Assembly (NCBI RefSeq): GCF_000018105.1
Contig: NC_009929.1
Location: 60,001-92,000 of the forward strand
Direction of reading: 5' to 3'
Length of the DNA: 32,000 nucleotides
Source: Acaryochloris marina MBIC11017
GTDB taxonomy: Bacteria; Cyanobacteriota; Cyanobacteriia; Thermosynechococcales; Thermosynechococcaceae
In this document: piece by piece, positions 1-16,606 of the stretch
Position numbering within the stretch: position 1 is the stretch's first letter
Layout of the letters: each line of letters starts with the position of its first letter
Notes under the pieces: model-generated
Database searches by the model: none
The model's input: only the letters and a program-made list of their open reading frames with translations
Told to the model about the DNA's origin: nothing
Translations under genes and position numbers: made by a program

Positions 1-167
1 CCGGAGCATCCAAGGTATTGCCAGTCATTTAAAGCTAGAAAAAACGAACAAGTTTTGTAACTCTGATGAGCTTTCAGTCGGTCTTTTGCGATCGCAACTA
101 CGATACCAATCATCTGAAGAAATATTTGAGATTTATTTGTTCCGAGAGCTAAGAAATCTGGGGAGAG

Positions 168-503
168 TTGTTACTAGAAGCACTGGAAAAGTTGCTCAAC
201 GACTTAAATCAATCTAGAGGACAACTCATGAATCCATCTCAGACTTCAAACCTAGCCACAGAAAAAAAACCTCAAGGGATGAGACTGAGGGACAGATTGA
301 TTTTATTTGGATTGCAAGAGGGTTACTACGACGTGTCTTCGCTGACCGCTTTCTATAACCTCAATCGTCCCAGCATGACGGCTCAGTATGGAGAGCAAAT
401 TCCCGGAGAGCGGTATTGCTATCGAATCACTGAACTGGGGATTATCTGGTGCCAGATTTGGCGTTCGAAACCTCTGATACCCATCCCCAGAACTTACACC
501 TGA
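168..503 (+). CDS. hypothetical protein; the tracked ORF starts at TTG 168, but ATG 228 is a more likely start
   Basis: Open frame of 111 codons. AGAGGA lies about 8 nt upstream of ATG 228. No motif recognised. Confidence 0.35.
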   Translation: MLLEALEKLLNDLNQSRGQLMNPSQTSNLATEKKPQGMRLRDRLILFGLQEGYYDVSSLTAFYNLNRPSMTAQYGEQIPGERYCYRITELGIIWCQIWRSKPLIPIPRTYT

Positions 504-526
504 AACTACTTTATGGAGGTTATCTA

Positions 527-637
527 ATGAAAGGCTGTCTGATAGTTCTTCTGATCCTGATTACCCCCTTACTGCTCCTCGCAGGCCCCATCGGTTGGGT
601 CTTAGGGATTATCGCTTGGATTTTGCTCCTGAAGTGA
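527..637 (+). CDS. small hydrophobic membrane peptide, 36 aa (MKGCLIVLLILITPLLLLAGPIGWVLGIIAWILLLK)
   Basis: ATG at 527 lies inside tracked ORF 449-637 in the same frame. GGAGG sits 7 nt upstream. The sequence is almost entirely hydrophobic, with a basic residue at each end. Confidence 0.45.
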   Translation: MKGCLIVLLILITPLLLLAGPIGWVLGIIAWILLLK

Positions 638-694
638 GGTGCTAGATTTTTTAGTTTTGCACCAATTCCGACTTCACACCTGAAATCACCCCAC

Positions 695-1025
695 TTTTCA
701 GATTCCATCTGGAAACTGAACTCTTAAGCTATGACCGACAACCCGCCAGAACCAACTGAGGTTAACCCTTCCGGGCAGACTGCTAGCCCCACAGAGAAGC
801 GGGTTCTGGAGGCATTTGCAGGCATGATGCGGAGTTGCGATCGTATCCGCGATACCGTCCGAACGACCAGAGAGCGAGTAAATAAGGAAACGACAAATTT
901 ATAGATTCTCTAAGGAATCTGTATTACCTAATCATTTCAGTCTCCGCGTGGAATCTGAGTTACCTAGCCCATAGAGTGCCAACTTACTAATTTTCAGAAT
1001 CCACAGAGATTCTGTATTACTTAAC
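695..1025. repeat. four dispersed copies of an imperfect palindromic motif, roughly TTTCAG-AWTCC-N4-GGAWTCTG-(T/A)(A/G)TTACCT
   Basis: Copies are cagattccatctggaaactg (699-718), agattctctaaggaatctgtattaccta (903-930), cagtctccgcgtggaatctgagttaccta (938-966) and cagaatccacagagattctgtattactta (995-1023). The last copy ends about 18 nt before ATG 1042. Confidence 0.6.
731..904 (+). CDS. small hypothetical protein, 57 aa (MTDNPPEPTEVNPSGQTASPTEKRVLEAFAGMMRSCDRIRDTVRTTRERVNKETTNL)
   Basis: Hand-translated ATG..TAG frame, below the ORF-track length cutoff. It lies among the repeated palindromic motifs. No SD sequence. Confidence 0.3.
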   Translation: MTDNPPEPTEVNPSGQTASPTEKRVLEAFAGMMRSCDRIRDTVRTTRERVNKETTNL

Positions 1026-1041
1026 TGCTGGAGTAAAAACT

Positions 1042-4000
1042 ATGACTGCAACAAAAGACGAAACACTGACCATTGTTCCTGGCTGGAGCGAGGATAATTC
1101 GAGCGATACCCCAGACGCATTGAAGGCATTCCTAGACACCAAGCCGATTAATCGCAGTACCTATATCTCTGCCCCTGGATATTCGTTTGATTTGGAAGTC
1201 CATCACTGGGGTGATCGTTTTACGATTACAGCTCGAATGGGCGAGGATGCCTGGAACATTTACAGCTCCCACACTTTTGACTTCAGCGACCAGGAAAGCT
1301 CTACAGATAGTTGGTATCGATCAGATGATATTCAGATGACTCCACAGCATTACGAAGCTGTGACCAAGCTTATTGGCGATATTGGCATTGAAGGGCCAAC
1401 TATACCTACAGAGTTGAGCGGCTGGGTGAGTCAGGACCGAAGTGAGTCAAGGCATTTAAATTTTCGGTTCGAGGATAAAGGGAACAGGCATTACCTGGGA
1501 CTCGACCTGGTTAGGCATGGCGACCCAGATAAGATTGACAGACTGATTCGTGATCATCGTTTTGATGAGCTGGTTGCTCTGGCAACTGGTGAGACAAATG
1601 CCCACCTGAATTATCCCCACCATGCAAATTTAACCAATTTGAGTCCTCGACAGATTGAGGATTTCATTCTAGCTGAGGCTGCTTGCTTAGCCCCAGAGTA
1701 TGAGCTAGAGCCTCACCAGATGCAAAATATCCTCCAAGACATGTCAGCTTCAGTACTGAACTCTCGGGGATACAAGCCAGACTATGGGTATCAGATTGCA
1801 GCAGGTAATTCAGTCGAGCCTCGGACTAATGACTTCAGATCATCGGTTACGTGCAGGGGGGAGTGGGCACTGGAATTTAATTGGGAAGATGACTATCACT
1901 CGATGCCACTTGGTGGTGAACCGGGTGATACCTTCCAATCAGACGAGGATCGGGCCGCAGTCGTCACGGATTATGGGAACCTGGGCGCGATTGAGAAGAT
2001 GATTCAAGATTCTCGCTTTCGTGAACTGGCAACTGCTTCAGTCAGCGCCCCTGCTCACTACCATTACTACCCTGAACTGAACAATATGCAAGGGGTATAT
2101 CCAGAGGTAGCCAAGGAAAGAATAGAATCCCACCTGCTTCTTGTCGCTACTGAATATGGCCTCGCGGAACGAGGGGTTCGGTTGCTTGAGGATATGCGAT
2201 TGAAGGTGATGGAGGATCGGGGAGACCACAAGAACCACTCCTACGATGGATTATTGGGAATTGATCGTGTACCCCAAGATGAGTTGCAGCAAACCTTGCC
2301 AGAGCTGGATGTGAAAGCATCTGGTGTTGAGCTGCTGCCTAATATTCAGGAAATACCCCAATCAAACCAACAGCCAAACATCGATCTTTATCAATCCTTA
2401 TACGGAGCTGCTGATCAATATGGAGACTTCGATGTTGGTTTTACTGAGCTGGCATTGGGTAATGGGTACTCTGTGACAACCACCGATCAAAGCTTGAATA
2501 TTTTCAAAGATGATGAGCGAATCATTCACGTTGTCGCTGAAAACCCCAGCCCTTATGATGGATTTTTGCAAGAGCCTTTGCAAATAGAGGACAAGACTAC
2601 TCCAGGACAGAGAGAAGAGCTTCAGGTTGAGCTACATGAGCTAAAGCAGTGGGCAGAGAGAGATTTTGAAAAAAACCTTCAGGAAACACCAATCGCGGAA
2701 GGTGCTATTACCTTAGAGCAGTTAGCGAATAACACTCAGCAGATTAAAGGGCTAGCTGACACTCAAGTAACTAAAACGCCTTCTGTTCCCATCATCAAAT
2801 CCACTCAAAACGTTTTCTGGATCACCCATGAGGCTAGCTACCTTAAAAGTAATCTGACCTGTGTCAAAACAACCAGAACCCATACCCAAGCAAAGCTTGA
2901 TGCCTACTACATAATCAATGAAGGCTATGATCATTACGAGATTAATGATATTGAGCCACTGCCAGAATCTGTCTGTCACTTACTGGTCAAATTCTTTGGC
3001 TATGAGATTTGTGAGTATGATGATTCAGCGATAGAGATAGACCTGCTGTACATCTGGCAAGGGCCAAGAGATCCTGATATTAAGGTAGGAAATAAGAGCT
3101 GGTATCTGTGGCTGAATCTGTCAAGATTCCGCTGGGGGTTTTATCCCGAGCTAATGGCAATCATGGAAGGTCGCCTCAACGTTAATAGGTTGCCCCAGTA
3201 TCCTTGGAATTCTCAGCATGAGTCAGTGACTGGCTGGGATTGTGGTGATTATGTCATTGAAGTAGCGTTTAATTTGTTCAACAGCCAATCAGAGGCTGAA
3301 GAGTTTGGGGAGTCCTGCTATGCCCTTGCTCTCTATGAGGAATATTGCAACCTTCTCAAGCTCCTCTACATCGATCCATATGGTGATGAACAGCGTACCC
3401 CTATCCGCAAGGATGAGGTTAAGGTCTTTCTCAGTTCATCCGTTTTTGATATCAGGTCTGGAGATCTGCGTGATCGCGATGAATGGGAGCTTGTCCCAAT
3501 AGATGAATGGGACACCCCTAGTCTAGTTATTGGCGCTCAACTTTACTGCCAAGGTCGGGATGCTAAAGCAATAATAGCGTTAGAAATTCAGGAGCTGGGT
3601 GAGAAGGCGCATGACAAAGAGGAGGTGGTAACTGAGTCATTCAACGAAGACCAGTCTCCTGAGTGTATTCAAGAGGATCTGGAAAATCATCTAACTGTGG
3701 AGTTGATCGACGGTGAAGGCGAAACCCAAATTCGGCAACTCAGAATGACGATTCGAGATGTGGTTGTTGGTGTGAAAATTGGTTTTGAATCCTATCGAGG
3801 TGGGTTTAAGTCATACTATGAAGTTGATTTATCCGTTGTCGAGTCGATTGCAAAAGATCCACGTTTCAAGGAGCTGGTTGCTATCTCATCTGGGATGATC
3901 GATTACCCCTATGTAAAATACCCGGATTTTAGTAATGTCCAATGTTTGGACTCTGGAGATGATTTGAAGCGATTCGTCGAAAGTCGGGCATATAAACTTG

Positions 4001-4683
4001 GCGAAGAGTATGGTGATTCATCAATTGCTGGGAAGCTGATCGACGAGGTAAATCATTGCTATGCCCTGGAAGTAGATGTTTCTAGATATAAGATCCGCAA
4101 CGACGCAGTAAAGGGTATTCCTTTCAAGCCGTCAAAATTTAGAGGTGGCAAGATCGACCAAAGCGGTCGCCTTCCTGAATCCTATGTCAGTGTGGGCAAG
4201 GTTTACACCGACGACCAGACAAAAAATCTAGAATTGCCGATCAGGATTGGCTCTGAAGAGTTTACTGTGACCGTGGGTGTCGAAACCCAGAATGGCACGA
4301 GCTACAGCTATGGCGATTCATTAGAGCCTGTTCAGGGTATTACCCAGGACCAAAGATTCAATGAGCTGGTGGCAGCGACTGCTGGGATTAAAGAGTATCC
4401 CTATACCCATAATTTGGATTTTCGACATCCAGACAAACTAACGGTTGAAGAGGTGCAATCTACCATTAATCGACGTGCTGAGATCCTTGGGGAGGAGTAT
4501 GGAGTAAGGATTATGGGGGAGTCTTTGGTGGCTTGCATTGGCACTACTTATGCTGCATTACGAGGAACCACCAGAGAAGCTTTATTGCAGAGCTTTGTTG
4601 ATCCCAGTCAAGAAATTGAGCTAGAGGCGAATTGCCAATGCGAAAACAGTAGATCGTCCGATCAGGTTCTCACGAGTAGTTAA
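1042..4683 (+). CDS. large hypothetical protein (1213 aa) with four copies of an unrecognised internal module
   Basis: Uninterrupted 3.6 kb frame with GGAG about 10 nt upstream of the ATG. The repeated core D-x-R-F-x-E-L-[VA]-[AT] occurs at nt 1552-1578, 2008-2031, 3856-3882 and 4348-4374. No Walker A motif seen. Confidence 0.85.
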   Translation: MTATKDETLTIVPGWSEDNSSDTPDALKAFLDTKPINRSTYISAPGYSFDLEVHHWGDRFTITARMGEDAWNIYSSHTFDFSDQESSTDSWYRSDDIQMTPQHYEAVTKLIGDIGIEGPTIPTELSGWVSQDRSESRHLNFRFEDKGNRHYLGLDLVRHGDPDKIDRLIRDHRFDELVALATGETNAHLNYPHHANLTNLSPRQIEDFILAEAACLAPEYELEPHQMQNILQDMSASVLNSRGYKPDYGYQIAAGNSVEPRTNDFRSSVTCRGEWALEFNWEDDYHSMPLGGEPGDTFQSDEDRAAVVTDYGNLGAIEKMIQDSRFRELATASVSAPAHYHYYPELNNMQGVYPEVAKERIESHLLLVATEYGLAERGVRLLEDMRLKVMEDRGDHKNHSYDGLLGIDRVPQDELQQTLPELDVKASGVELLPNIQEIPQSNQQPNIDLYQSLYGAADQYGDFDVGFTELALGNGYSVTTTDQSLNIFKDDERIIHVVAENPSPYDGFLQEPLQIEDKTTPGQREELQVELHELKQWAERDFEKNLQETPIAEGAITLEQLANNTQQIKGLADTQVTKTPSVPIIKSTQNVFWITHEASYLKSNLTCVKTTRTHTQAKLDAYYIINEGYDHYEINDIEPLPESVCHLLVKFFGYEICEYDDSAIEIDLLYIWQGPRDPDIKVGNKSWYLWLNLSRFRWGFYPELMAIMEGRLNVNRLPQYPWNSQHESVTGWDCGDYVIEVAFNLFNSQSEAEEFGESCYALALYEEYCNLLKLLYIDPYGDEQRTPIRKDEVKVFLSSSVFDIRSGDLRDRDEWELVPIDEWDTPSLVIGAQLYCQGRDAKAIIALEIQELGEKAHDKEEVVTESFNEDQSPECIQEDLENHLTVELIDGEGETQIRQLRMTIRDVVVGVKIGFESYRGGFKSYYEVDLSVVESIAKDPRFKELVAISSGMIDYPYVKYPDFSNVQCLDSGDDLKRFVESRAYKLGEEYGDSSIAGKLIDEVNHCYALEVDVSRYKIRNDAVKGIPFKPSKFRGGKIDQSGRLPESYVSVGKVYTDDQTKNLELPIRIGSEEFTVTVGVETQNGTSYSYGDSLEPVQGITQDQRFNELVAATAGIKEYPYTHNLDFRHPDKLTVEEVQSTINRRAEILGEEYGVRIMGESLVACIGTTYAALRGTTREALLQSFVDPSQEIELEANCQCENSRSSDQVLTSS

Positions 4684-4731: not shown

Positions 4732-5419
4732 GTGTCAAGCAAGCGGTTGCTGGAGAAACCAATCACCTGCACTAGGGCAAAGACCTTGCAGCAAGAACTG
4801 GATAAACATCGTCAGATCAATAAAGAGCCGCTTGCCCAAGTTTCAAAAATTGTAGATCTTGAGGATGAGGTTGAATTACTACGTTCTCAGAATCGAGAGT
4901 TGCTGGCTGCGCGGAAAGTAACTCAAGAAAAGGTGGTCAACTTACCAATTAGAAACCAGCCTGTGCACAAAAGTGATGTTAGAAAGGATAACTTTTCTGT
5001 GCAGATTAAAACTGAGCTAGAAACACTTGGGATTAAATTAACGAATACGCTACGCAAGACAATGGAAGTTGCGCATGAAGAAACTGTTGTCGAGGCCATT
5101 GAAGCCTTGATAACAGCTCTAGAAACAAGTGATATCAAGAGTCCTGGTGGGTTGGCTTAAAAAAGCTATCGAAGGTGGTTGGAGTCACAATGAAAGGCTC
5201 CAGAAACAAAAGAAGGTTCTGTATCCTGAAGGATTTAAAAAGTGGCATGAACAAGCAGTAAAGGTTAACTTTGTTCTAGATATTCCTATAGAATATCTAA
5301 ACCTTGATGAACGGAATGAAGCAAAAGTGAAGATAAATAAGCCAGGAATCTTTGGTGCACCTTATAGGGATCTGCATTGGAAGGAAGCTAAAATAGAGAT
5401 GCTAAATTTTCATAATTAG
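4732..5419 (+). pseudogene. single gene broken by, or requiring, a +1 frameshift (tracked as ORFs 4732-5160 and 5129-5419)
   Basis: The two ORFs overlap by 32 nt in adjacent frames. Skipping the T at 5152 (GGG T TGG) joins ...DIKSPGG to WLKKAIEGGWSHNE..., which reads as one continuous motif. Confidence 0.55.
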
Positions 5420-5452
5420 AATACATTTATATTATGAAAATTTAGCATCTCT
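5395..5452. repeat. 22-bp perfect inverted repeat with a 14-nt loop
   Basis: Arm agagatgctaaattttcataat (5395-5416) pairs with attatgaaaatttagcatctct (5431-5452). The loop contains the TAG stop (5417-5419) of the preceding ORF. It sits exactly where composition drops to AT-rich. Confidence 0.9.
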
Positions 5453-5546
5453 TCTGAGGAATGAGTTAATTTATTTTTATGAGAAATTTGGAAAAATATT
5501 CTTGCAAATCCTCTTGATGCTGCCATAGAGTAAAATTTAATCATAA

Positions 5547-7403
5547 ATGAGAAATAATCATAAAAAGAAAAAATTCAAAAAACAGAAAGACAATAACCCT
5601 CTAGACACAAAACAAATAGATTTAGAGATCCGTCTTGATGCAATTCTAAAAAGTAGATGCGGGGGAGCATATAATATTAATGGTATTAGATACCAAATCC
5701 TATATTCTATACTTAGAGGATTAGAACTCTATAATACACAATGCTCATTTAGCTCCATTAGATTAGAAGGTATTGAAGATTTAGATTGTCTAAAAATCAA
5801 CTTAAATAATGAGTATATACAAATTAAAACATCTAAAAACTCATGGAATTGGGCGAAGCTAAAAGAACCAGTTAAAAACTTCTTAATAGTTCTAAGTGAA
5901 AGTCCTAATTCGCTTTTTTCAATAGTTTTAAACTCTACATTTAAATCGGATGTTTTGAAGTTATCCAAGAAAGATAAACTTAACTCTAATGAATATGAAG
6001 GAATCAAGAATAAATTCATAAAATTATGTTCTGATGTTGGAGCTTCAAGAAATGAGGCTGAATTACTTTTTGAAAAAATAGGTATTAAGAATTTACCAGA
6101 GAAAGAAATTTATGAGGAGATAAAAATAGGGCTAACGAACGATTTTCAATTAGGTAGCAATCTAGTAGACACATACTTAGCTGTTCTAGTTAGTAAGTTT
6201 CTTTACTGGGCACAAGAAAGAGTAACTATTTCAAAAAAAGATATAGAGTTAATCAGAGTATCAATTGGTGACCATATTGCAAGTGAAGAACATCAAGCTT
6301 ATGGAAGAGGATTGATTGACAGGATATCTTGGAATATAGATGATAAACAGTCAGATTTTTTTGAAGGCAAAGGTACAAGACCTGGTCAAATATCAGCTGG
6401 TGTTGATGTAAGGAGAATACGCTGGCTGGAAAAAATTGACACTGCAATATATAAAACTAAAATTTGTGTACTCAAATCTTCCAGTGGTCAAGGAAAATCT
6501 GCACTACTTTACAGGTATGCTTACGAATACTGGAGGCATGAAGAGATTTATATTCTAAGAGTTGCTGAAACTGATGAACAAGCAGAGGCAGTATGTAAAT
6601 ATATTAGATTTATAGATAGCTTAGGCTTACCAATTCTCTTGCTTATTGATGATGCTGGGTTTCGAGCCAGAAAATGGCCTCAAATAGTTCGAGAATGTGT
6701 ATCACTGGGCATATATGTTCTAATGTCGGTTAGACATGAAGATTGGTTTAGATTTGCTAGAAGGGATATAACGAACTGGGAAGTCATTGAGCCAACTTTA
6801 GATTTAGCAGAAGCAAAGCAGATATATTCGACATTAAAAGCAGAGAATTATGTACATTCAAACGCTACGTCTCCTGAATGGGCATATGAAAAAATTGGTA
6901 CACCTAAACTTCTAATTGAATATACATATCTACTTACTCATGGGCGCATGATTGAAGACAGGCTCAGAGATCAAATTCAGCAGATTCAAGACCATAAAGA
7001 AGACCCTGCAAAAATTGAAATTCTAAGAAGAGTTGCACTGGCCGATACTCTCGGAACGCCTGTAGTTGCAAGTAGATTAATCAAGGACATTTCCCTAAGC
7101 TCAGACCCTCAACAACTTCTTAAATCACTGGTTGATGAGTATATAGCACTAGAAGAGACAGGAATACTAAGAGGTTTACACTGGGTTCGTTCAAATCACT
7201 TGACTTCGATTCTTCACGAAGGATATCCAAATATAGTAGACACCTTACTAAAGACAATAAACTCAGTCTTAGATATTGATCGTAAAAGATATATTGCAAA
7301 ATCATTATGCATAAATGATCTTAATCTGAATGAGTTTATTACTGGATTATCACAATTAGTCTCAAATGAAGACTTAATGACTTTTCTTGGCGTTGCTCAA
7401 TGA
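5547..7403 (+). CDS. N-terminal fragment (614 native aa plus GVAQ from the IS) of an IS-split Cap4/DUF4297-like nuclease and P-loop (STAND-like) NTPase
   Basis: Nuclease-like signature: GG (aa 39-40), RYQ (48-50), EGIEDLD (74-80), IQIK (91-94). Walker A SSSGQGKS is at nt 6477-6500 and Walker B LLLIDDA at nt 6636-6656. The last four codons and the stop lie inside the IS left inverted repeat. Confidence 0.8.
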   Translation: MRNNHKKKKFKKQKDNNPLDTKQIDLEIRLDAILKSRCGGAYNINGIRYQILYSILRGLELYNTQCSFSSIRLEGIEDLDCLKINLNNEYIQIKTSKNSWNWAKLKEPVKNFLIVLSESPNSLFSIVLNSTFKSDVLKLSKKDKLNSNEYEGIKNKFIKLCSDVGASRNEAELLFEKIGIKNLPEKEIYEEIKIGLTNDFQLGSNLVDTYLAVLVSKFLYWAQERVTISKKDIELIRVSIGDHIASEEHQAYGRGLIDRISWNIDDKQSDFFEGKGTRPGQISAGVDVRRIRWLEKIDTAIYKTKICVLKSSSGQGKSALLYRYAYEYWRHEEIYILRVAETDEQAEAVCKYIRFIDSLGLPILLLIDDAGFRARKWPQIVRECVSLGIYVLMSVRHEDWFRFARRDITNWEVIEPTLDLAEAKQIYSTLKAENYVHSNATSPEWAYEKIGTPKLLIEYTYLLTHGRMIEDRLRDQIQQIQDHKEDPAKIEILRRVALADTLGTPVVASRLIKDISLSSDPQQLLKSLVDEYIALEETGILRGLHWVRSNHLTSILHEGYPNIVDTLLKTINSVLDIDRKRYIAKSLCINDLNLNEFITGLSQLVSNEDLMTFLGVAQ

Positions 7404-8184
7404 CGGGATGACTCACGCAGGAATAGGTACTTCCCCAAACTTGAGATAGTGGATCAATAGTCGAATTGAATGCTTGAGCATGTCCACCGACTTTGAATAA
7501 CATAAAGTCTTGCGATGGAGCCGTGCCAAGTAATGTCGTAAACGAGTATTTTCTCCCTCTACTCGTGTCATGTAGGTCTTGCTAACAATCTGGTCACCCT
7601 CTGGGATAAAGCCTGGATAGACGGGATTGCCATCACTGACCCAGAAAAAACATTGCCAACAGACGATTGCTTGCCATAACGGTCGAAAGGTCTCAGCACT
7701 ATGGTCACCCACAACCCAGCCTAGAATGCCGGGGTGAAAATGATCCACCACAGTCCAAATCCAGACCTTATTGCGTTTTTTGCCCACAAAGGTTTCGAGT
7801 TCATCTAATTCTCCGACCTGTGGGATATCGTCGGGGTCATAAGCATCGGGTAATAGAACTCCAACTTGTTGAACCCAATGAATCACAGTGGTATGAGCAA
7901 CGCCTATGACTCGTTCGATACCCTTCAACCCCATTCCATTGACATACATTCTCAGGCAGAGTCGTTTCGTCCAATCACTGTAGCCACGCTTTGAGTAAGT
8001 TGAAAGAAACTGTCGTCCACAGGTCACACAGATATGATTTTGTTTACCTCGACGATGCCCATTCTTATGGATATGTTGACCACCACACTCAGGACACTTC
8101 ATACAGATTCCTCATGATGTTTGAAATAGTCATGAGGTTATCCTGACGCAATCCAATTAATTCATCCCGTCATTGAGCAACGCC
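7389..8184 (-). mobile_element. IS1-family insertion sequence (796 bp)
   Basis: Perfect 23-bp terminal inverted repeats: GGCGTTGCTCAATGACGGGATGA at 7389-7411 and its reverse complement at 8162-8184. An 8-bp direct repeat CTTTTCTT flanks them at 7381-7388 and 8185-8192. Size, inverted-repeat length and duplication length fit IS1. GC is host-like (33/60 on line 7681-7740) inside an AT-rich gene. Confidence 0.9.
7413..8102 (-). CDS. IS1 family transposase, single fused ORF (229 aa)
   Basis: N-terminal zinc finger CPECGG...CVTCGRQF, an HTH-like GIERVIGVAHTTVIHW, and DDE-type segments (IWTVVDH, VSDGNPVY, EGENTRLRHYLARLHRKT). Confidence 0.9.
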   Translation of the reverse strand: MKCPECGGQHIHKNGHRRGKQNHICVTCGRQFLSTYSKRGYSDWTKRLCLRMYVNGMGLKGIERVIGVAHTTVIHWVQQVGVLLPDAYDPDDIPQVGELDELETFVGKKRNKVWIWTVVDHFHPGILGWVVGDHSAETFRPLWQAIVCWQCFFWVSDGNPVYPGFIPEGDQIVSKTYMTRVEGENTRLRHYLARLHRKTLCYSKSVDMLKHSIRLLIHYLKFGEVPIPA

Positions 8185-8192
8185 CTTTTCTT

Positions 8193-10376
8193 GAGTATTT
8201 AGAGGGAATTTATGAAGGTGGAGAAAGACTATGTTTTCAGAAAAATAAACATCTTTTTGAGCAATCATATGAATTACAAGGAACAAGAGGTCCACAATTT
8301 CTAGTCATATATTCATCACCAATTATCAAAAATGAAAAGCTAGATAATTCTTTAGATAGCTTAGCTAATAATATAGCTGCCTTAGAAGATATTCAGTCTA
8401 TCTCGTCAAACTTTGATAACTCATTAAGAGGTATAGAGTTATGCAGAGAATTCTTGCAGCAAATTCAAGATAAAATTTCAATTACAGGTGCTCAAAATAA
8501 TTTTGCCCAGTTAGGTAAGATTTTAGACTGGTCAGCATTAGCAGAAGTTACATTACTTAATTGGCATGAATTATTATCAAATATTTCATCGACACAAATA
8601 ATTTTTGAATTATCAATAGATGAATTTTGTATATTTTCTCAAGGATTTTATCGCTATGATTCCAAAAAATATTGTGATTGGTTTAATCAGAATTATGACT
8701 CTATTATTGGATATTTGAAGCTTAATCTTGACTGTTTATCGCTTGAATTATTTGATGATGAATTATATTTCGAATTCTTAGTTGATTTGAATTCTGATGA
8801 TCCGAGTGGGTATGAAGAAACAAATTCACGACTAAGGAGATTTCGTTCAGCAATTCCTTTTTGTAAACAATATCAATCACATGGAATCTGGTTGTCGATA
8901 AAAACACCATTATTTAATGATACAGATAAAAATGTGAATAAGGATTTACTACCTTATAGTTCAGATGGTACTAAAGTTAATACTTGGCATGAAGTTGCCT
9001 ATTCAAACTTCATACCCGATAGTTATTATGATTTTCAAAAGGCATGGAATCTCATCAGAACCGATGCAATTGAATTTGTCAAGTATTTATCAAAATTTTT
9101 TCGTAGTCTTCTTACTCATGGCTCGGATCCAAAAATAAAAAATCATACCTCAAATATAGAAGTTTTTATAACTTTAGATAAAGCACTCGATAACTTTCCA
9201 TCTAGCTATGATGATAGTTCCGAGATAATTAGTTCATTACTACCATGTTCCTTACAAACTATCTTGAAAAAAGATAGTTATACAAATAAGTTATATCAAA
9301 GTTTTCATACATTTTTTTATAAAATGCGTGACTCTTTATTAAATCCAGAAAGTATAAATAACACAAAAGATATTATATTAAATTCATTCCTATTTGCTAA
9401 TTATTATTTACCAAAGCTACACCATGAATTTGATACGCTATTTGAATCTTGTCCTGATTACTTCAATATAAAATCGTTGAACTCAATTGAGAAGTCTGCT
9501 TATAGTACTCTAGAAGATTTGTTGCAGGCATGTTTTTCATTTAAAATTTTTCTAATTAATGAAATAGAAAAAGAATTACAAAAATCAAGAGAATATCAAG
9601 TTCAGATTTTAACTAATAAAACAACTGAAGTATCTAATTTCTTAAAAGATATTGGTATCGATACAGTTTTATCATCAGATGTATATAATCTGTATGATGA
9701 AAAACATGATTACATAAATAGGTATTTCTCTCTTGCTTTCTCTGTCCATAATCCATTGAATTATCTTGAAGTTCTCAGATCAGTACTCGAAGCTATTTTA
9801 AAAATAAGTAATATTGCAGATTTCTTCTGCCTAATTCCTGTTTACAAAGAAAAATTGTTTTTACCACCAAGAAATGGATATCATATTAGCTCCCTTTCAC
9901 TACTTAATATTCTAGGTAGTGGTGAAGATCTAAATTTACTTGAATTAGTAAGTATTACCCATTCTTTGACCATTCAAGAACTACCAGAATCTACTTTTTC
10001 ATATCTGCCAGAACTAGAGTATGAAGAATATCTCCCTTTAACACTAAAAGGTGAAGCTGTAGCACTATATACATTAGTAATATCACTTGTAAAATACGCT
10101 CGAGCTATTCACAGACTTATGGCAACAAGAAATGATTATGAAGTTAAGCTTTATGAACAACATCTTAGTAAAATCTATGCTTTTAACAGGAATATTCTCA
10201 ATAAAATTCATGAGTTAAAAGATAAATTTGCTTCATACTCAAACCAGCAAATTATTGACATGAATTTACTTAGTTTTCAACAATTCATTTATAAAGCATC
10301 TGAAAACTTAGAAACACCATCAATTGATAATATTTTATCTATTGATATATCTTCTGATTCTATTGATTTATCCTAA
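8193..10376 (+). pseudogene. C-terminal 727-codon fragment of the IS-split nuclease-NTPase gene (tracked from TTG 8454)
   Basis: The frame is open from 8193, immediately after the right target-site copy. 8193 is in phase with 8454 (261 nt apart) and with codon 7386-7388 once 7389-8192 is removed. No ATG, GTG or TTG occurs in frame between 8193 and 8454. Very AT-rich. Confidence 0.75.
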
Positions 10377-10741
10377 CTGAATTCAAAGCAAAATGGTTTG
10401 AAATTTTAAGAAAGGCTATCAGATTAAATGAGCGTCATTGTTTATCTTTACTTATAAATTTCTTTGGATGAGGTAACTCAAAAAACTTATGACTTATCGT
10501 TTATTTGAATGCTCAAGCTGAAAAGCTTTTCACTGAAGGCATTATAAGAATAACCAATAGTAAACTGTCCTTCCGAGAGGGTGGAAATAGAAAGCACTCG
10601 TCAAGGTCTGCTGCTGATTTAGTTGTCACCAGCATGTCTGTCCCAGACCTTTCGTTAGCAGGGGAGCTGTCGGGTGAATATGGGTTGCTGCATAGCTCTG
10701 ATTGATCTACTTAGTGTGGGGAAGATATAGTTGAACCTCGT

Positions 10742-12997
10742 CTAATTCTCTTTCAAGGTGGCAGCAAATCGTTTTCGTAGCAAGTCATGGACAAAGCGGT
10801 ATCGACCACCAGTCCGCTGAATGAATCGTTGGTTTTCGGCATGGTCGAGGAATCTTGCGTAGTTCCAAGGAGCGACCCCTGAGTGATAAAGGGCTATTCG
10901 CAAAGATAGGTGTTTACATGCTGCATTTAAGCCGAAAATCAACCCTCCAGTCAGCCCTCCAGTCAGCCCTACAATCAACCCTCCAGTCAGCTCGTTAAAT
11001 AGCCCGCCAACTACCCCACTAATCAGCCCGAAAATTAGCCAAACAATCAGTCCATTGCTGATAGAGTCTTTAATCCCTTGATTAGCATTTGTTTTATCCC
11101 GAGCATCAATTTGAGAAGCTGTTATTCCGCTAATTAGCCCAAAAATCAGCCCACAACTCAACCCGCCGAAAAGCCCGCTACTTAATCCGCTACTCAACCC
11201 GCCAAATAGTCCGAAAATCAGCACGCTGCCCAGTCCGCTTCGATAGAAAGCACCCCAAGAGAAGCTGAGCTTTTCTGATGTTGTGATATGAGTCAGTCCG
11301 CCAAATAGTCCGAAAATCAGCCCGCTACTCAGCCCGAAAATCAGACCGCTACTCAGCCCGCTACTCAACTTGTGAATCAGCCCATAAATCAACCCGCCAA
11401 TCAACCCACCAATCAGTCTGAACATCCAGCAATACTGATTATAAGCTTTGGAAGTATCCAACCATGAAGGTTGCAATTTCTCAATTAGAAACTCTGCTGA
11501 TCCTTCAAAATCTAGTTTGCTTGCTAACCAACTTAGATAGTGATGTGTTTGCTTTGGAGTGGGAGCCTTTCCTTTGGGGTATGCTCCTCGAAGGTTCAAA
11601 TCATAGAGTTGTTTATGGATATATTCATCTAGTAATTCTTCTGTACTACTTATGTTTTGCCCTTTATACGCAACCACTAAAATAAGTAGAAATAATGGTG
11701 AATGAGCTAGTTTCATGAGTTCAGGCTGGCTTTGAAGTGCTTCCCATAATGAATCTCGCTTTCGTTCCGGGAGCTTTAGCTTATGGAGATAGTCATGAAT
11801 CTGATCATCTTCTAGTGCCTGTAAGTAAATTGCTCCATTCAATTGCTTTAGATATTCCCCTTGTTGTTCAAGTGCTTCATATTCCTTGCGCCGACAACAC
11901 ACAACCAGGGGTAAAGCGAATCTAGTTAGAAAGGCATTGATTTCCCGTACGCATTGAATCTGTTTTGCTATCCATTGTTGGTCTAGAACTTCAGGTGTGA
12001 TCTCATCACTCGCTACTGCACGAATTTGACGGTTTTTATGGAAGAAAATTTGAAACGACGCAAATACCTTCCTAACTGCTGAGGGAATCCAAAATTGCTG
12101 GTGTCTGAAACCCCTAATTAAGGATTTCATTTTTGTTTGCTCGTAACCTTCAAATTTATGCACATCTACCCTTCTCAGTTCGTCTAAGCCATCCAGCAAT
12201 GGAAGTAACTGATGATGTCTCATCCAGTGCTTCGAAACAACGAAAGGGACACTATACTTCTCAAACAATTGCTGAGCTAGCCAATCAGCAAAATCCTGTT
12301 CTGCTTTCCATTCGGATAGTTGAAAGATTACGGGAATAGGTTTATCAAGTGATTGCTGTGCTTGGCTCAGTAAATCTCTAGCTAGAGCTAACAGTTCATT
12401 TGTCTTACCAGACCCCGGTTCTCCTAAGATCAACAAACGTCCTTTAATACTCTCCTGTTTATAGAGTTCTTGAGTAGATTTGCTGGTACTTACAGCTTTG
12501 GGTGGTGTGGATTCTAGGAAACGCTGGAATGTGCGTCTGATAAAATTTACGGTTATTTGTTCAGTTTCTTCTTCTTGAGCAGGTATTAAATTTCCCTGCC
12601 CAACCCGTTGCCGTTGCTCTTCCCTCTTAATGTCAATACGAATTTTGTTGTAGAGAGAGTCTTCCAAACGCTCAACAACTTGCTTGAGCAAGATCTCAAT
12701 TAGTTCTTCTCGTACTTTTTGTCGTTGCGCTTCTGTGATTTCAGGTTTCTTGCGAACGAGGTACTTTTGAGCAAAGACGATGATTGTATCTAGATTGCCT
12801 GTCCAAATAGCGATAGCTGTTGTAGCCACAGCTATAACAGCAAATCCTGCAACGCCCCACCTAATCGTTGGATTTTTGTTTAGTAAATCTATTACTGGAT
12901 TATTTTGTGAGTTATCCACTTGTTGGACTATGATGTTCGCTAGTATCCTCAGCAAATGAATTGTACGTAGGCTGCCCAATTCAGAAATTACAAACAT
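10742..12997 (-). CDS. NACHT-type STAND NTPase with an N-terminal TM helix and C-terminal glycine-zipper TM arrays (751 aa)
   Basis: Walker A GEPGSGKT at nt 12401-12424 and Walker B LLPLLDGLDEL. The N-terminal hydrophobic stretch is WGVAGFAVIAVATTAIAIW. There are three C-terminal hydrophobic blocks of GL-x-x-GL repeats. The tail ...WNYARFLDHAENQRFIQRTGGRYRFVHDLLRKRFA is typical of cyanobacterial NACHT proteins. Confidence 0.85.
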   Translation of the reverse strand: MFVISELGSLRTIHLLRILANIIVQQVDNSQNNPVIDLLNKNPTIRWGVAGFAVIAVATTAIAIWTGNLDTIIVFAQKYLVRKKPEITEAQRQKVREELIEILLKQVVERLEDSLYNKIRIDIKREEQRQRVGQGNLIPAQEEETEQITVNFIRRTFQRFLESTPPKAVSTSKSTQELYKQESIKGRLLILGEPGSGKTNELLALARDLLSQAQQSLDKPIPVIFQLSEWKAEQDFADWLAQQLFEKYSVPFVVSKHWMRHHQLLPLLDGLDELRRVDVHKFEGYEQTKMKSLIRGFRHQQFWIPSAVRKVFASFQIFFHKNRQIRAVASDEITPEVLDQQWIAKQIQCVREINAFLTRFALPLVVCCRRKEYEALEQQGEYLKQLNGAIYLQALEDDQIHDYLHKLKLPERKRDSLWEALQSQPELMKLAHSPLFLLILVVAYKGQNISSTEELLDEYIHKQLYDLNLRGAYPKGKAPTPKQTHHYLSWLASKLDFEGSAEFLIEKLQPSWLDTSKAYNQYCWMFRLIGGLIGGLIYGLIHKLSSGLSSGLIFGLSSGLIFGLFGGLTHITTSEKLSFSWGAFYRSGLGSVLIFGLFGGLSSGLSSGLFGGLSCGLIFGLISGITASQIDARDKTNANQGIKDSISNGLIVWLIFGLISGVVGGLFNELTGGLIVGLTGGLTGGLIFGLNAACKHLSLRIALYHSGVAPWNYARFLDHAENQRFIQRTGGRYRFVHDLLRKRFAATLKEN
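10920..11430 (-). repeat. in-frame short tandem repeats (12-nt periodicity) encoding GL(I/S/T)xGL glycine zippers
   Basis: Visible DNA repeats such as cagccctccagtcagccctccagtcagccctacaatcaaccctccagtcagc, and agcccgctactcagcccgaaaatcagaccgctactcagcccgctactcaac. Confidence 0.8.
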
Positions 12998-13411
12998 ACC
13001 CCAAAAGTCTTGTGAATATAACTTTTTTATTGCATTGTAGTTTTAAAAGTCATAATATAGCTTCGTTTTTCTGGTGCTTACCCTTGAGCTTCAATAGGAA
13101 AATAATTTTAGATCCTAATATAAAAATTAGATCCCTCAAACTGCCTAGCTTAACACTTCATCCCAGTAATTTGAATGATATTGTACAATCTAAACTTGAT
13201 CGTAAGAGATAGTAAAATTAATAATGAATTTATAAATGTATCTGACAAAAAAATTAAAATAGAAAACTTCGAAATATGTTGATAGGTAAAATAACTAAAA
13301 TTCACTATAAATATGAAGTATGGTGCCTAAAATACGCTGCTTTAACATTAGCAATGATGAGATGATAGAATACTCCTTAAACATATTTTTTAAAGTAATT
13401 AATCATTTGAT

Positions 13412-13915
13412 ATGTTATTCAAAATTAGACTCTTTGTTGCAGGATTAATGGGAGCAATTATAACATTTATAGGATTTTACATATTATTAGTTTTGACCGA
13501 CTTAATTGTTCCTTACACTAGTCGATTATACTTTCTGCATATAAATACTATTTTGCAGATATTAATTGGGATAATCCAAATGTTTGCTTTAATTGGTCTA
13601 GGTGATATTGTTGGTAGATTTGTATCATTTTTTGCAAAAAATAGATCAAGTAATTTGACAAGAAAGGTAGCAAGTTTTTCCTATCTATTTGGCTGCTCTA
13701 TTGTAGTAATTTTCTACTTTTCTAATTTAAAATCAGAAAATTTATCTAGGAATATATTTTTCAAGGCCGTTAATATAATACTGTCTCTTATTCCTTCCAT
13801 AATACTTACCTTGAGGACAGGAAGAGTAGAGCCTTTATATACATGGATTTTGATAATTCCTAGAGTAATTGGTATGTATGCAGGTAGTACCCAAGCCTAC
13901 GAACAAGCAAGCTAA
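13412..13915 (+). CDS. hypothetical multi-pass membrane protein (167 aa)
   Basis: At least four hydrophobic segments. AT-rich like the split gene. No SD sequence and no recognisable family. Confidence 0.55.
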   Translation: MLFKIRLFVAGLMGAIITFIGFYILLVLTDLIVPYTSRLYFLHINTILQILIGIIQMFALIGLGDIVGRFVSFFAKNRSSNLTRKVASFSYLFGCSIVVIFYFSNLKSENLSRNIFFKAVNIILSLIPSIILTLRTGRVEPLYTWILIIPRVIGMYAGSTQAYEQAS

Positions 13916-14165
13916 TTGATCGTAGCTATTGACTTATTGATGCCTTAGCTTACGAGATGTTAACTTTTGATTTTGTTAGGTTAATTTTCTTTATTCGCTA
14001 ATGAATTATCCTAACACCTACTTATTCTTTAAGTTCACTCCCATAATTAATTCAATACTACCAATAGTCTCCTATAAATCTGTCAGGATTAGTTAGCCAG
14101 ATTTCATGAATTAGCCATTCCCTCCTCAAACTTTCTGATTTTTAGTGAGTAAGGCAATACATGTC

Positions 14166-14195
14166 AAACCCCTGACCATTGCAGCCAGAGGTTTT
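14166..14195 (-). terminator. putative intrinsic terminator downstream of the 14214-14651 gene
   Basis: On the minus strand CCTCTG..CAGGGG forms a stem with one mismatch, followed by TTTG. It lies 19 nt past the stop codon. Confidence 0.4.
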
Positions 14196-14213
14196 CCTTG
14201 TATTCTCTGTTAC

Positions 14214-14651
14214 TTACGCCACCATCCCCAGCGGATCGGCTGGCAGCTCAATCACCTGACCCTTCCGACTGGCCTTGCAGCCCGCTAGCAACTCCTCCCA
14301 AGCCTTCCGGGTGCTGAGCTTGTCGTGGGAAATTCCCCAGTCCTTCAGCTTGGCCTTGAGTGCATTGGTATCGCTTACCTCATAGTGAGCAAGAACTTCG
14401 GTTTTGATATCACTGAGCTTGGTCTTGGTGGCCTTGGCATCCTTCCAGGGTTGATTGTCGATGTCGAAGTAGGTTGCCAGTCCAAGCCAGTAGCCACGGG
14501 TACGGGCATCGTTGGTATCATCGGGCCACTTAGCGGAAACGGCCTTTCGTAATTGGGCAGAGGTGGCAAACTCGCCTTCAAAACCTGGCTTGCTAGAGGC
14601 AGTAGCTGCGGCAAGAACTGCACTCTTTAGAGCGGATAGTGTGTATCTCAT
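14214..14651 (-). CDS. hypothetical protein (145 aa)
   Basis: GGAG about 11 nt upstream of the ATG and protein-like composition. The C-terminal half shares a ~45-aa motif with the product of 15762-16088. Confidence 0.65.
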   Translation of the reverse strand: MRYTLSALKSAVLAAATASSKPGFEGEFATSAQLRKAVSAKWPDDTNDARTRGYWLGLATYFDIDNQPWKDAKATKTKLSDIKTEVLAHYEVSDTNALKAKLKDWGISHDKLSTRKAWEELLAGCKASRKGQVIELPADPLGMVA

Positions 14652-15001
14652 TGTTTAATACTCCATTTTTGTAGTGTTGCGGATGGTCCGCATTCGGGCC
14701 TCGTCTAACGCTCTGAGGGGCGGGCGTTTATCGAGATGCCTTCTCGCTGATTTCAAGGGTTATCAGGAACCTTTTCGATGTAATTAGTATAAATCCCCTG
14801 ATATTGGGAATCAAGGACTTCACACTAGGAATTTCTTATCGATTCTCTTGGTTGAATAAGCAAATGCTAGTGTGCTAGTGGTTGCAACATACTTGAGACT
14901 TTTATCTCTTCAAAGATATCTTGGTATGGCCTTGGGTACACTATGTATATGGCTAAACCTTTTTTGAGAAGGTCAATTAGCTTCGTTCGACCGAAAAAAC
15001 G

Positions 15002-15757
15002 ATGCCTAGTCCCACTGAAAGACCAAATACAGATTATACGAAGCGAAACAATATTCGTAGAATTGTCAAAATTGCATGTGCTCCTTTACTTTATAAGGTT
15101 TTAGTTGAGAAGAGAGACCTTGCGGGTGAGTTGGTCAGAGATGCACAAGGGAAAAAGGTTCTTGAAGAGATACCGCTACAGGATGCCACTAGCGCTCAGC
15201 TTTTTAATCACTATCGCCACAATGTTACTAATTACGAGGAGGCTATAGATTTAATTAAACAGTCTCAGAATGGCTATATTAGCGATAAGCAGGTCAAGTG
15301 GTGCTCTGCTGCTTCTGCTGAAGTGGTTATGGCTGTTTTAAGGACTGAGCATGAGATCACGTTAGAGAAATACTTTGAGCTGGAGAGTGATTTTCAAGAT
15401 ATTATTGAAGCCGCTCAGACCAATAACCTATTTGATATTATTCAACTGATCAGACAGTCAGTCGGTAACGCTGTGGAGTCTACTCTTCAAAAGTCATTAA
15501 TCAGAGCGAATAATAGTAGAAACACGTATCGTAATGAGAATAACTTACAGCGTTGCAAGCTCTACCTGATTGATGACACTGTTAACCATGAAGATGATCT
15601 TAGTGTCATCAGAGAACGGGTAAACATAGTTCTAAAACAGCGAGGGACAAACAAATTAGCTGAGGCTTGGGCGAAATTAACTGACTGGGAAAGTTCTGAG
15701 GTTATTGAGCTTTTCAAGCGTGAAGGACTTATTCGAGACCTAAAAAAATTGGAATAA
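15002..15757 (+). CDS. hypothetical protein (251 aa), first gene of a three-gene operon
   Basis: Long open frame. Contains NHYRHNVTNYEE, reminiscent of the RH-x-x-T-x-Y-(D/E) signature I associate with DUF2293; this is unverified. Confidence 0.65.
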   Translation: MPSPTERPNTDYTKRNNIRRIVKIACAPLLYKVLVEKRDLAGELVRDAQGKKVLEEIPLQDATSAQLFNHYRHNVTNYEEAIDLIKQSQNGYISDKQVKWCSAASAEVVMAVLRTEHEITLEKYFELESDFQDIIEAAQTNNLFDIIQLIRQSVGNAVESTLQKSLIRANNSRNTYRNENNLQRCKLYLIDDTVNHEDDLSVIRERVNIVLKQRGTNKLAEAWAKLTDWESSEVIELFKREGLIRDLKKLE

Positions 15758-15761
15758 GTCT

Positions 15762-16088
15762 ATGAAGAAAATCAAAGAATTGAAGTCAGAGGTTTTTGTC
15801 TTACTGAATGTTACTTCTACAATTCAATTAAAGAAAGAATATAAATCAATAGCCAGTGGTAAGGATTTCCGCTTCAAGAAAACGTGGATTGAATTACTAG
15901 AGAGTCTTACTAAATGTATCGACTTGAAGGCATCGGCTAAGGTAATTAAACAGAGTATGCATCGAGTTGGCCGGGCTGTCGGCAACTCCTATCAACAGAC
16001 AGAAGAGCAGATAGCAACTATAAAAGAGCGCGTACGGCTCAAAAAAATTGCTCAAGGGAAAGATCGTCTTGTTGGTGGGGGAATATGA
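15762..16088 (+). CDS. hypothetical protein (108 aa)
   Basis: Starts 4 nt after the upstream stop. Its stop overlaps the next start (ATGA at 16085-16088). Confidence 0.6.
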   Translation: MKKIKELKSEVFVLLNVTSTIQLKKEYKSIASGKDFRFKKTWIELLESLTKCIDLKASAKVIKQSMHRVGRAVGNSYQQTEEQIATIKERVRLKKIAQGKDRLVGGGI

Positions 16089-16384
16089 GATTTACAACGG
16101 CGAAGTCTTTAATCAACCTTGATCCTCTACCTGAAATCTGCGGTATATATTTTGTTGTGACTGCGGAAGATGAAATTATATATGTCGGCCAAACAACGAA
16201 TCTCAAAAATAGATGGAAAGATGGGCATAAGGTTCTCAAGCGTATGCTTGCAGAAGGTATAGACCCAACTAAAGCAAGATTAGAGTGGCAAAAATTTCCA
16301 AAGCGCCTGTTGAACAGAGTTGAAAACTGTGCAGTAAGGGTTCATCAACCACGTCTTAATGAAAAATCTCCACCTGTTTTATAA
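16085..16384 (+). CDS. minimal GIY-YIG nuclease domain protein (99 aa)
   Basis: GIYFV...IIYVGQTTNLKNRW...GH...VENCAVRVHQPRLN carries the GIY, YIG, Arg, His, Glu and Asn positions of the GIY-YIG core. A G-rich SD (GGTGGGGG) lies upstream. Confidence 0.75.
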   Translation: MRFTTAKSLINLDPLPEICGIYFVVTAEDEIIYVGQTTNLKNRWKDGHKVLKRMLAEGIDPTKARLEWQKFPKRLLNRVENCAVRVHQPRLNEKSPPVL

Positions 16385-16606
16385 ATCTTCCACAGGATAC
16401 TTTAGATTTATTTTAGTAGAGAATGTATTTGTCGGATTCTCTAAGAAATAAATATGTATACCTATAATAACTTAGATTTTTGGCCTGGGTGAAGCTGTTA
16501 AACCCTTTGGTTATTCTAGGCTCAATAAGTTTCAAAATATATTTAAAGTTGAAGTAATCCCTGGGAAATACTTGATGAACTCACTAATGCTTTAATCTCA
16601 AATGTT

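Follow-up and report, generated by a model that had tools for sequence, protein, structure and literature searches.

Avs3 and Avs7, the characterised antiviral proteins to which the gene described here bears the closest likeness, are encoded by solo genes that are sometimes found in defence islands, and carry in a single chain a Cap4-type PD-(D/E)xK nuclease, a STAND NTPase and a large C-terminal domain, in that order. For Avs7, the published account (PMC13581612) describes a C-terminal sensor that binds a phage protein, the C-lobe of the apo sensor sequestering the Cap4 domain; ligand binding leads to STAND tetramerisation, by which the active nuclease is assembled. Avs2-trypsin is reported in a preprint to auto-activate once its sensor is removed (bioRxiv 10.64898/2026.08.25.746987). 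The present study concerns a gene of comparable architecture in a 32,000-nucleotide stretch of DNA (positions 60,001 to 92,000 of NC_009929.1, hereafter referred to as the window) from the cyanobacterium Acaryochloris marina MBIC11017, in which a 796-bp insertion sequence (IS) of the IS1 family lies between the two halves of one long reading frame. The element has split a plasmid-borne Avs-like nuclease-STAND gene, the intact form of which was probably a single-chain antiviral receptor, now most likely dead in this strain.

The nSTAND1 and nSTAND2 groups are 'novel STAND' clades that were defined computationally in the work of the Aravind group on conflict systems (PMC8195603). A 2026 survey reports 589 STAND clades including nSTAND together with 684 sensor clusters, and was seeded partly with Cap4 BLAST hits (PMC13581612). 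The present NTPase matches the Pfam family nSTAND_NTPase5 (PF25199), which is a domain model only and leaves the activity, the trigger and the structure of this architecture unspecified; a description of the nSTAND5 clade was not found in the literature searched, and the family has probably already been seen computationally. Disruption of defence genes by insertion sequences is commonplace, the architecture fits the Avs paradigm and a Pfam model of the NTPase clade exists. What the locus adds is an intact and a disrupted allele that form a natural pair, a C-terminal domain that is modelled with high confidence yet lacks a structural relative, and the flagging of a rare nuclease-STAND family that is present in both bacteria and archaea.

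The interrupted reading frame and the inserted element

The two parts of the disrupted gene (Table 1), when joined across the element, give 4026 nt, corresponding to 1341 codons (614 and 727 from the two sides) and a stop with zero internal stops, and the in-phase reconstruction proposed in an initial annotation of the window is thus reproduced exactly. The insertion point falls between codons 614 and 615, just past the STAND module and ~50 residues beyond the winged-helix domain. As present in the genome, the N-terminal fragment is a 618-amino-acid (aa) open reading frame (ORF; 5547-7403) that ends four codons inside the IS. It is deposited in the public records as ABW32570.1 / WP_012167795.1, a 'dsDNA nuclease domain-containing protein' of 618 aa, and the C-terminal fragment as ABW32572.1, a 640-aa 'hypothetical protein' that covers 8454-10376 only, starting from a TTG at 8454. 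These are annotated as two separate proteins and not as one IS-interrupted pseudogene; the reconstruction corrects this annotation, ABW32570.1 and ABW32572.1 being the two halves of one gene. The N fragment is the sole piece with a promoter, and the C fragment is a remainder without one.

Table 1. Coordinates of the features of the disrupted gene, the inserted element and the AT-rich module, numbered from the first letter of the window
Feature	Position	Strand	Remarks
AT-rich module	4785..10564	+	31.5% GC without the IS; 89-92% DNA identity to the CCMEE 5410 plasmid contig (L008)
5' part of disrupted gene, codons 1-614	5547..7388	+	nuclease, nSTAND5 NTPase, helical and winged-helix part, start of C-terminal region
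PD-(D/E)xK nuclease, Cap4/DUF4297/LmuA type, ~aa 39-285	5661..6401	+	PF14130 aa 39-136; PADLOC LmuA aa 45-285
P-loop NTPase core of STAND module, nSTAND_NTPase5, aa 270-400	6354..6746	+	PF25199
Walker A, SSSGQGKS	6477-6500	+	aa 311-318
Walker B, LLLIDDA	6636-6656	+	aa 364-370
Left 8-bp target duplication, CTTTTCTT	7381..7388	.	single-copy in CCMEE 5410 empty site
IS1-family insertion sequence, 796 bp, 46% GC	7389..8184	-	transposase antisense to disrupted gene
Terminal inverted repeat, 23 bp, transposase-distal end	7389..7411	.	sequence in text
Single-ORF IS1 transposase, 229 aa, intact	7413..8102	-	N-terminal zinc finger and DDE_Tnp_IS1
Terminal inverted repeat, 23 bp, transposase-proximal end	8162..8184	.	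identical 25-bp end in L002
Right 8-bp target duplication, CTTTTCTT	8185..8192	.	single-copy in CCMEE 5410 empty site
3' part of disrupted gene, codons 615-1341 and stop	8193..10376	+	presumptive sensor/auto-inhibitory region

The inverted repeats and the target duplication reported in the initial annotation were both found at their positions. The inverted-repeat arms, GGCGTTGCTCAATGACGGGATGA, constitute a perfect 23-bp pair and are the sole two matches in the window at up to three mismatches, 100 shuffles having given 0. The target duplication may also be counted as 9 bp, a G being the next base on each side, and the excised sequence is identical either way. The only long ORF within the element encodes the transposase, which matches the NCBIfam equivalog NF033558 at 251.7 bits (cut-off 100) over model positions 1-199 of 199, the IS1/IS1595 zinc-binding domain NF050000 at 45.4 bits (cut-off 28) over aa 3-34 and the DDE_Tnp_IS1 domain (PF03400) with an E-value of 3.4e-22. 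We place the element in the IS1 family, as had been suggested earlier, since, like the members of this family, it encodes a DDE_Tnp_IS1 transposase with an N-terminal zinc finger, is ~0.8 kb long, has inverted repeats of ~23 bp beginning with GG, and duplicates 8-9 bp of its target.

The prototype IS1 of Escherichia coli carries an insA/insB' pair that is joined by a programmed frameshift, whereas the transposase of the element described here is contained in one uninterrupted ORF. Cyanobacteria commonly have this single-ORF form: at E-values of 1e-40 or lower, the transposase has more than 1000 relatives, mostly cyanobacterial and nearly all 229-230 aa in length; the closest cluster shows 97% identity and comprises 41 member sequences. 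The ends of the element recur on other copies. The exact 23-bp end was found in three other cyanobacterial contigs, one of which (L002) bears an IS copy with 80% identity over 662 bp and an identical 25-bp end, and plasmid pREC4 of A. marina MBIC10699 carries a 240-bp fragment from the IS end with 96% identity. A search of PLSDB, a collection from which the MBIC11017 plasmid is absent, with the locus and the IS as queries returned this 240-bp fragment alone.

An uninterrupted orthologue, for which the initial annotation had suggested a search in related cyanobacteria, is present in Acaryochloris sp. CCMEE 5410 (WP_262562645.1, 1340 aa), in the same 90% cluster as the MBIC11017 protein. Its identity to the rebuilt protein is 88.5% across 1325 aligned residues, with zero gaps, and it runs through the junction as FLEYLEGIYEGG (FL|EY). 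At the DNA level, positions 4785-7389 and 8186-10564 of the window align to positions 9241-11846 and 11839-14219 of the CCMEE 5410 contig (L008), in which both flanks abut with an overlap of exactly the 8-bp target, present there once, as TTTTTCTT. Both target copies in the window carry the same variant base (C) relative to CCMEE 5410, as is expected of a duplication made at insertion. The empty site is therefore a proof of insertion as good as sequence alone can offer. That the insertion is an artefact of assembly has a negligible probability: nothing specific points to it beyond the fact that IS copies are classic sources of mis-joins, and a mis-join would not repeat, precisely, 8 bp that the orthologue has only once, together with perfect inverted repeats and in-frame flanks.

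The insertion is also recent. The synonymous divergence (dS) from the CCMEE 5410 allele is 0.24, and the ratio of nonsynonymous to synonymous divergence (dN/dS) is 0.16 in the N half and 0.31 in the C half; neither the inverted repeats nor the target duplication has a mismatch, and the frames of the transposase and of the two gene halves have stayed open. The low dN/dS in both halves indicates that nearly all of the divergence accrued under purifying selection and hence that the knock-out is recent. In comparison with the CCMEE 5410 allele the rate of evolution of the C half is about double that of the N half, and family-wide identities are 23-34% for the C half and 38-54% for the N half, faster evolution of this kind being typical of the ligand-binding domains of immune receptors. 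The intact allele of CCMEE 5410 provides a natural control for the inactivation of an immune-type gene by a mobile element.

The encoded protein and its relatives

Both a Cap4-like nuclease and a STAND-like NTPase had been read in the N-terminal half from short motifs, and profile and structure searches recovered the two domains. The nuclease motifs are GGAYNINGIRYQ (aa 39-50), EGIEDLD (aa 74-80) and IQIK (aa 91-94). Cap4_nuclease (PF14130) scored 29.3 bits with the N half alone and 26.1 bits with the full-length protein, the cut-off being 26.2, and the LmuA nuclease model of PADLOC matched the N half with an E-value of 3.5e-10; this match required the N half to be scanned by itself, a PADLOC scan of the full 1341-aa protein giving none. 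nSTAND_NTPase5 scored 37.5-39 bits against the window protein, above the cut-off of 34. The nuclease residues R37, G40, N43, Q50, E74, E77, D78, D80 and K94 are invariant in the family and Q92 is nearly so; S313, G314, Q315, G316 and K317 of Walker A are likewise invariant and D368 of Walker B nearly invariant, and the window allele retains every invariant nuclease and Walker residue. The Walker B motif of most homologues carries D-N (consensus LLLIDN), and that of the Acaryochloris protein reads LLLIDD.

The AlphaFold2 model of the N half has a predicted local distance difference test (pLDDT) score of 87.3. Its nuclease core shows the alpha-beta-beta-beta-alpha-beta arrangement expected for PD-(D/E)xK enzymes, with D78/D80 and Q92-x-K94 on adjacent strands (78-84 and 87-94 in the model), and these residues likely constitute the active site. 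The nuclease is followed by a P-loop domain, a helical domain and a winged-helix-like domain, the STAND module with the latter two spanning ~aa 270-560. Foldseek searches of this model against the PDB gave Avs3 (8dgc, 5.9e-11), Avs4 (8dgf, 1.7e-9) and Cap4 (6wam, 3.9e-8), with further matches to SAMD9, EfAvs5, LmuA (9nxx) and Apaf-1.

The C half comprises the 727 aa encoded by the 3' part, the whole C-terminal region being ~750 aa. Its model (pLDDT 87.7, predicted TM-score 0.83) is mostly helical with two beta-sheet inserts. A profile of the family yielded nothing significant against the PDB sequences. A TPR/HEAT-type sensor was considered for the C-terminus and is unsupported by Foldseek against the PDB and BFVD, the region not being TPR-like.

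The protein can thus be set beside several described systems. It shares with Avs3 and Avs7 the domain order and the Cap4-STAND front end. It differs from them in that its NTPase belongs to the nSTAND5 clade and that the PADLOC Avs/AVAST models do not match; Avs3, with ~2000 aa, is much longer than this protein of ~1340 aa; and, in contrast to the usually TPR-like sensors of the Avs proteins, its C-terminus is helical with the two beta-sheet inserts, and no neighbour of it was found in the PDB or BFVD. By sequence it is not a member of Avs1-5. The nuclease domain resembles LmuA and Cap4, matching the LmuA model as well as the Cap4 and LmuA folds, but unlike in Lamassu LmuA and CBASS Cap4 it is fused to a STAND NTPase. 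It is neither Lamassu nor CBASS Cap4: an LmuB/SMC-type gene is absent from the vicinity of the gene, both in the window and at 9 homologue loci, a SAVED domain is lacking in the protein, and a CD-NTase partner is present neither in the window nor directly beside the homologues; a CBASS operon found near one relative (L010, see below) is a separate system with its own SAVED effector.

A total of 238 relatives of the rebuilt protein were found. More than 100 of the homologues are uninterrupted, with lengths of 1290-1350 aa and identities of 33-44% covering 93-98% of the query, and the named sources include cyanobacteria, Methanothrix, Methanosarcina, Methanophagales (ANME-1) and Planctomycetes. 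Of 36 homologues scanned, all 36 matched nSTAND_NTPase5 and 21 matched Cap4_nuclease at E-values of 0.001 or lower, and 30 matched the LmuA nuclease model of PADLOC. With the C half as query, phmmer searched 1.84 billion representatives exhaustively and gave 141 matches, nearly all of the full-length matches starting at residue 590-650 of a protein of 1250-1450 aa. Matches so few in number and with the same start position indicate that the C-terminal region is essentially confined to one architecture and that the family is rare.

A handful of proteins of ~650-700 aa consist of the C half only. The two that were checked (L013, 3-1994; L014, 86-2185) begin at contig ends, and the 85 nt upstream of the ORF in L014 carry stops in all frames and not an N half. 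Such proteins could be other disrupted alleles, for example on contigs broken at an inserted repeat, or a true stand-alone form. A natural two-gene version of the system was considered on account of them, and no genuine case was recognised in the two proteins checked.

Proposed function of the intact and the disrupted gene

We infer an antiviral function for the protein by analogy with Avs3, Avs4 and Avs7. The horizontally acquired, AT-rich single-gene module encoded a 1341-aa protein of three parts, namely a Cap4/LmuA-type PD-(D/E)xK DNA nuclease, an nSTAND5 NTPase and the C-terminal region of ~750 aa. The intact protein would be an auto-inhibited, monomeric, single-chain pattern-recognition receptor, in which the C-terminal region would restrain the nuclease and the NTPase and bind a ligand derived from a virus or another invader. 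Ligand and nucleoside triphosphate (NTP) together would bring about STAND oligomerisation, by which the Cap4 domains would be assembled as an active DNase, and the degradation of DNA would abort the infection. Transposition of the IS1-family element into codon 614/615, with duplication of 8 bp, has broken the gene into two fragments; since the ligand-binding/regulatory part is missing from the only promoter-bearing fragment, the system is most likely dead in MBIC11017.

Several observations weigh against this interpretation. The Avs/AVAST models of PADLOC v2 match neither the window protein nor the 36 homologues, the PADLOC matches being limited to the nuclease domain; of the Avs-like architecture proposed in the initial annotation, the structural likeness has held, with Avs3 and Avs4 as the best matches, and recognition by the models of these systems has not followed. 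Experimental work on any member of the family was not found in the searchable literature, and some homologues are located among housekeeping genes (L004, L005-7, L009). The second acidic residue of Walker B is unconserved in the family, so that NTP hydrolysis may be slow or absent. The C-terminus, in which no motif could be named at the outset, gave a confident model, yet no structural relative was detected by Foldseek, the best E-values being 0.13 in the PDB (TM-score ~0.1) and 0.07 in BFVD; the label of 'sensor' for this region is taken from its position and the architecture alone.

A more tentative proposal, which we regard as rather doubtful, is that the C-terminal region represents a previously undescribed non-TPR sensor fold, defining a distinct Cap4-nSTAND5 receptor family, common to cyanobacteria, methanogenic and ANME archaea and Planctomycetes, with a trigger unlike those of the characterised Avs families. 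In a bolder variant of it, the sensor-less 618-aa fragment may keep a deregulated activity. If the proposal of a new sensor fold is true, MBIC11017 and CCMEE 5410 would constitute a ready loss-of-function/wild-type pair for finding the trigger, the triggers of virus sensing in cyanobacteria and archaea being poorly explored.

The disrupted locus might also be active in a new form, either through the 618-aa fragment, which might be constitutively or differently active once released from the inhibitory C-terminal region, or through reassembly of the fragments, with a C piece produced from the TTG at 8454 or by read-out from the IS. The N piece keeps the promoter region, the start codon and every invariant catalytic residue, and both pieces are still open reading frames; moreover, sensor deletion auto-activates Avs2-trypsin (bioRxiv 10.64898/2026.08.25.746987) and the sensor C-lobe of apo Avs7 sequesters Cap4 (PMC13581612). 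A constitutive DNase would, however, be toxic and would hardly persist, the more than 100 homologues are single polypeptides with no genuine two-gene homologue among those checked, promoter-like matches in the region are no commoner than in shuffled sequence, and the intact state of the halves is equally explained by a recent insertion. Renewed activity of the locus is thus distinctly improbable, and a simple loss of function is more likely than a deregulated fragment.

Genomic context and other features of the region

The disrupted gene is plasmid-borne, the locus being situated on a 226,680-bp plasmid of A. marina MBIC11017 which we take to be pREB4. The guanine and cytosine (GC) content is 33% in the 5' gene half and 28% in the 3' gene half, the values for the IS and for the whole 32-kb window being 46% and 42%; excluding the IS, the AT-rich module has 31.5%, and its flanks have 46% and 43.6%, in agreement with the compositional difference pointed out in the initial annotation. 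The stretch shared with CCMEE 5410 has the same extent as the AT-rich block, and the genomic surroundings of the module in CCMEE 5410 are unlike those in MBIC11017. That the block and the shared stretch are one and the same fits a horizontally mobile module, and the observations are consistent with the horizontal acquisition of an AT-rich single-gene module. No att-like direct repeats were found at the module borders (4785 and 10564). In CCMEE 5410 the gene is preceded by three tyrosine recombinases, an IS21 element and a DUF6262 gene and followed by an ISL3 element, and the homology of the window to this contig starts within the DUF6262 gene; the gene may be the cargo of a recombinase-driven element.

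About ten contexts of the gene and its relatives were inspected, four of them with clear defence neighbours, two with mobile-element neighbours and three to four ordinary, and in all of these the gene stands by itself, neighbours not being conserved. A type III CBASS operon (12891-17004) lies 2 kb downstream of the family member on a metagenomic contig (L010), a 1516-aa NACHT protein and an integrase are found beside the member in L012, and ResIII and AAA_21 genes are the neighbours on an IMG/VR contig (L017). On a further IMG/VR contig (L015), a Shedu (SduA_C) gene and a second STAND gene flank a distant family member, so that the locus resembles a defence island of small size, on what may be a prophage. 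The association with defence genes is suggestive.

The CBASS-like operon of L010 is complete, with a SAVED effector, a SMODS cyclase, a bacterial HORMA protein and an AAA/TRIP13-like protein. The flanking genes in L015 are located at 17-4411 and 10261-11487, and the second STAND gene encodes a 1464-aa protein that weakly matches nSTAND5/AAA.

Such contexts also bear on the possibility that the gene is a STAND-type conflict module directed not at phage but at competing plasmids or mobile elements, or that it is a selfish addiction module carried along by integrative elements. Both Acaryochloris alleles are plasmid-borne, the CCMEE 5410 gene adjoins the recombinase, IS21, DUF6262 and ISL3 genes, an integrase is next to the member in L012, and the AT-rich module is common to different contexts. 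But defence genes typically ride on mobile elements, so that both readings are equally compatible with the context. CBASS, Shedu and restriction-type genes share islands with relatives of the gene, and the combination of a Cap4 nuclease, a STAND module and a large C-terminus is antiviral in every characterised case (Avs3, Avs7). A target other than phage is for these reasons considered unlikely.

The ordinary contexts raise in turn the possibility that the gene serves housekeeping or regulation, for example in DNA repair or in signalling that depends on NTP, and has nothing to do with conflict. Several homologues lie among metabolic, metal-resistance or tRNA-synthetase genes, and STAND NTPases include transcription regulators (PMC13581612). 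Such a role is nevertheless highly improbable, given the patchy, cross-domain distribution (141 of 1.84 billion representatives), the deviant GC content, the location on a plasmid and the dispensability of the gene in MBIC11017, and an effector that is a Cap4-type nuclease, a DNA-binding helix-turn-helix output domain being absent.

Scans of the region for promoters and terminators gave matches that are no commoner than in shuffled sequence, and Rfam and tRNA scans of the window gave no matches. At 5395-5452, ~95 nt 5' of the start codon of the disrupted gene and directly after a small upstream ORF, there is a hairpin with perfectly paired 22-bp arms and a loop of 14 nt; the CCMEE 5410 allele has four mismatches in it. 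The hairpin could serve as an operator or terminate the upstream gene. Immediately 5' of the AT-rich module, a 1213-aa ORF (1042-4683, + strand; ABW32567.1, 'hypothetical protein') has no match in Pfam or PADLOC.

Directly downstream of the disrupted gene and convergent with it is a 751-aa ORF (10742-12997, - strand) encoding a NACHT NTPase (PF05729, 35.1 bits), for which the PADLOC matches are weak; it may be a second STAND-type gene of the same locus. A second AT-rich patch at 13001-14000 (28% GC) contains a 167-aa ORF (13412-13915) without a match in Pfam or PADLOC. Further downstream, at 15002-17578 on the + strand, a 323-aa protein (16607-17578) is made up solely of NPHP3/TPR_12-type repeats with no NTPase attached, and is preceded by two ORFs (15002-15757 and 15762-16088) that have no match in Pfam; together with the repeat protein these may be the remnants of another broken STAND-TPR gene.

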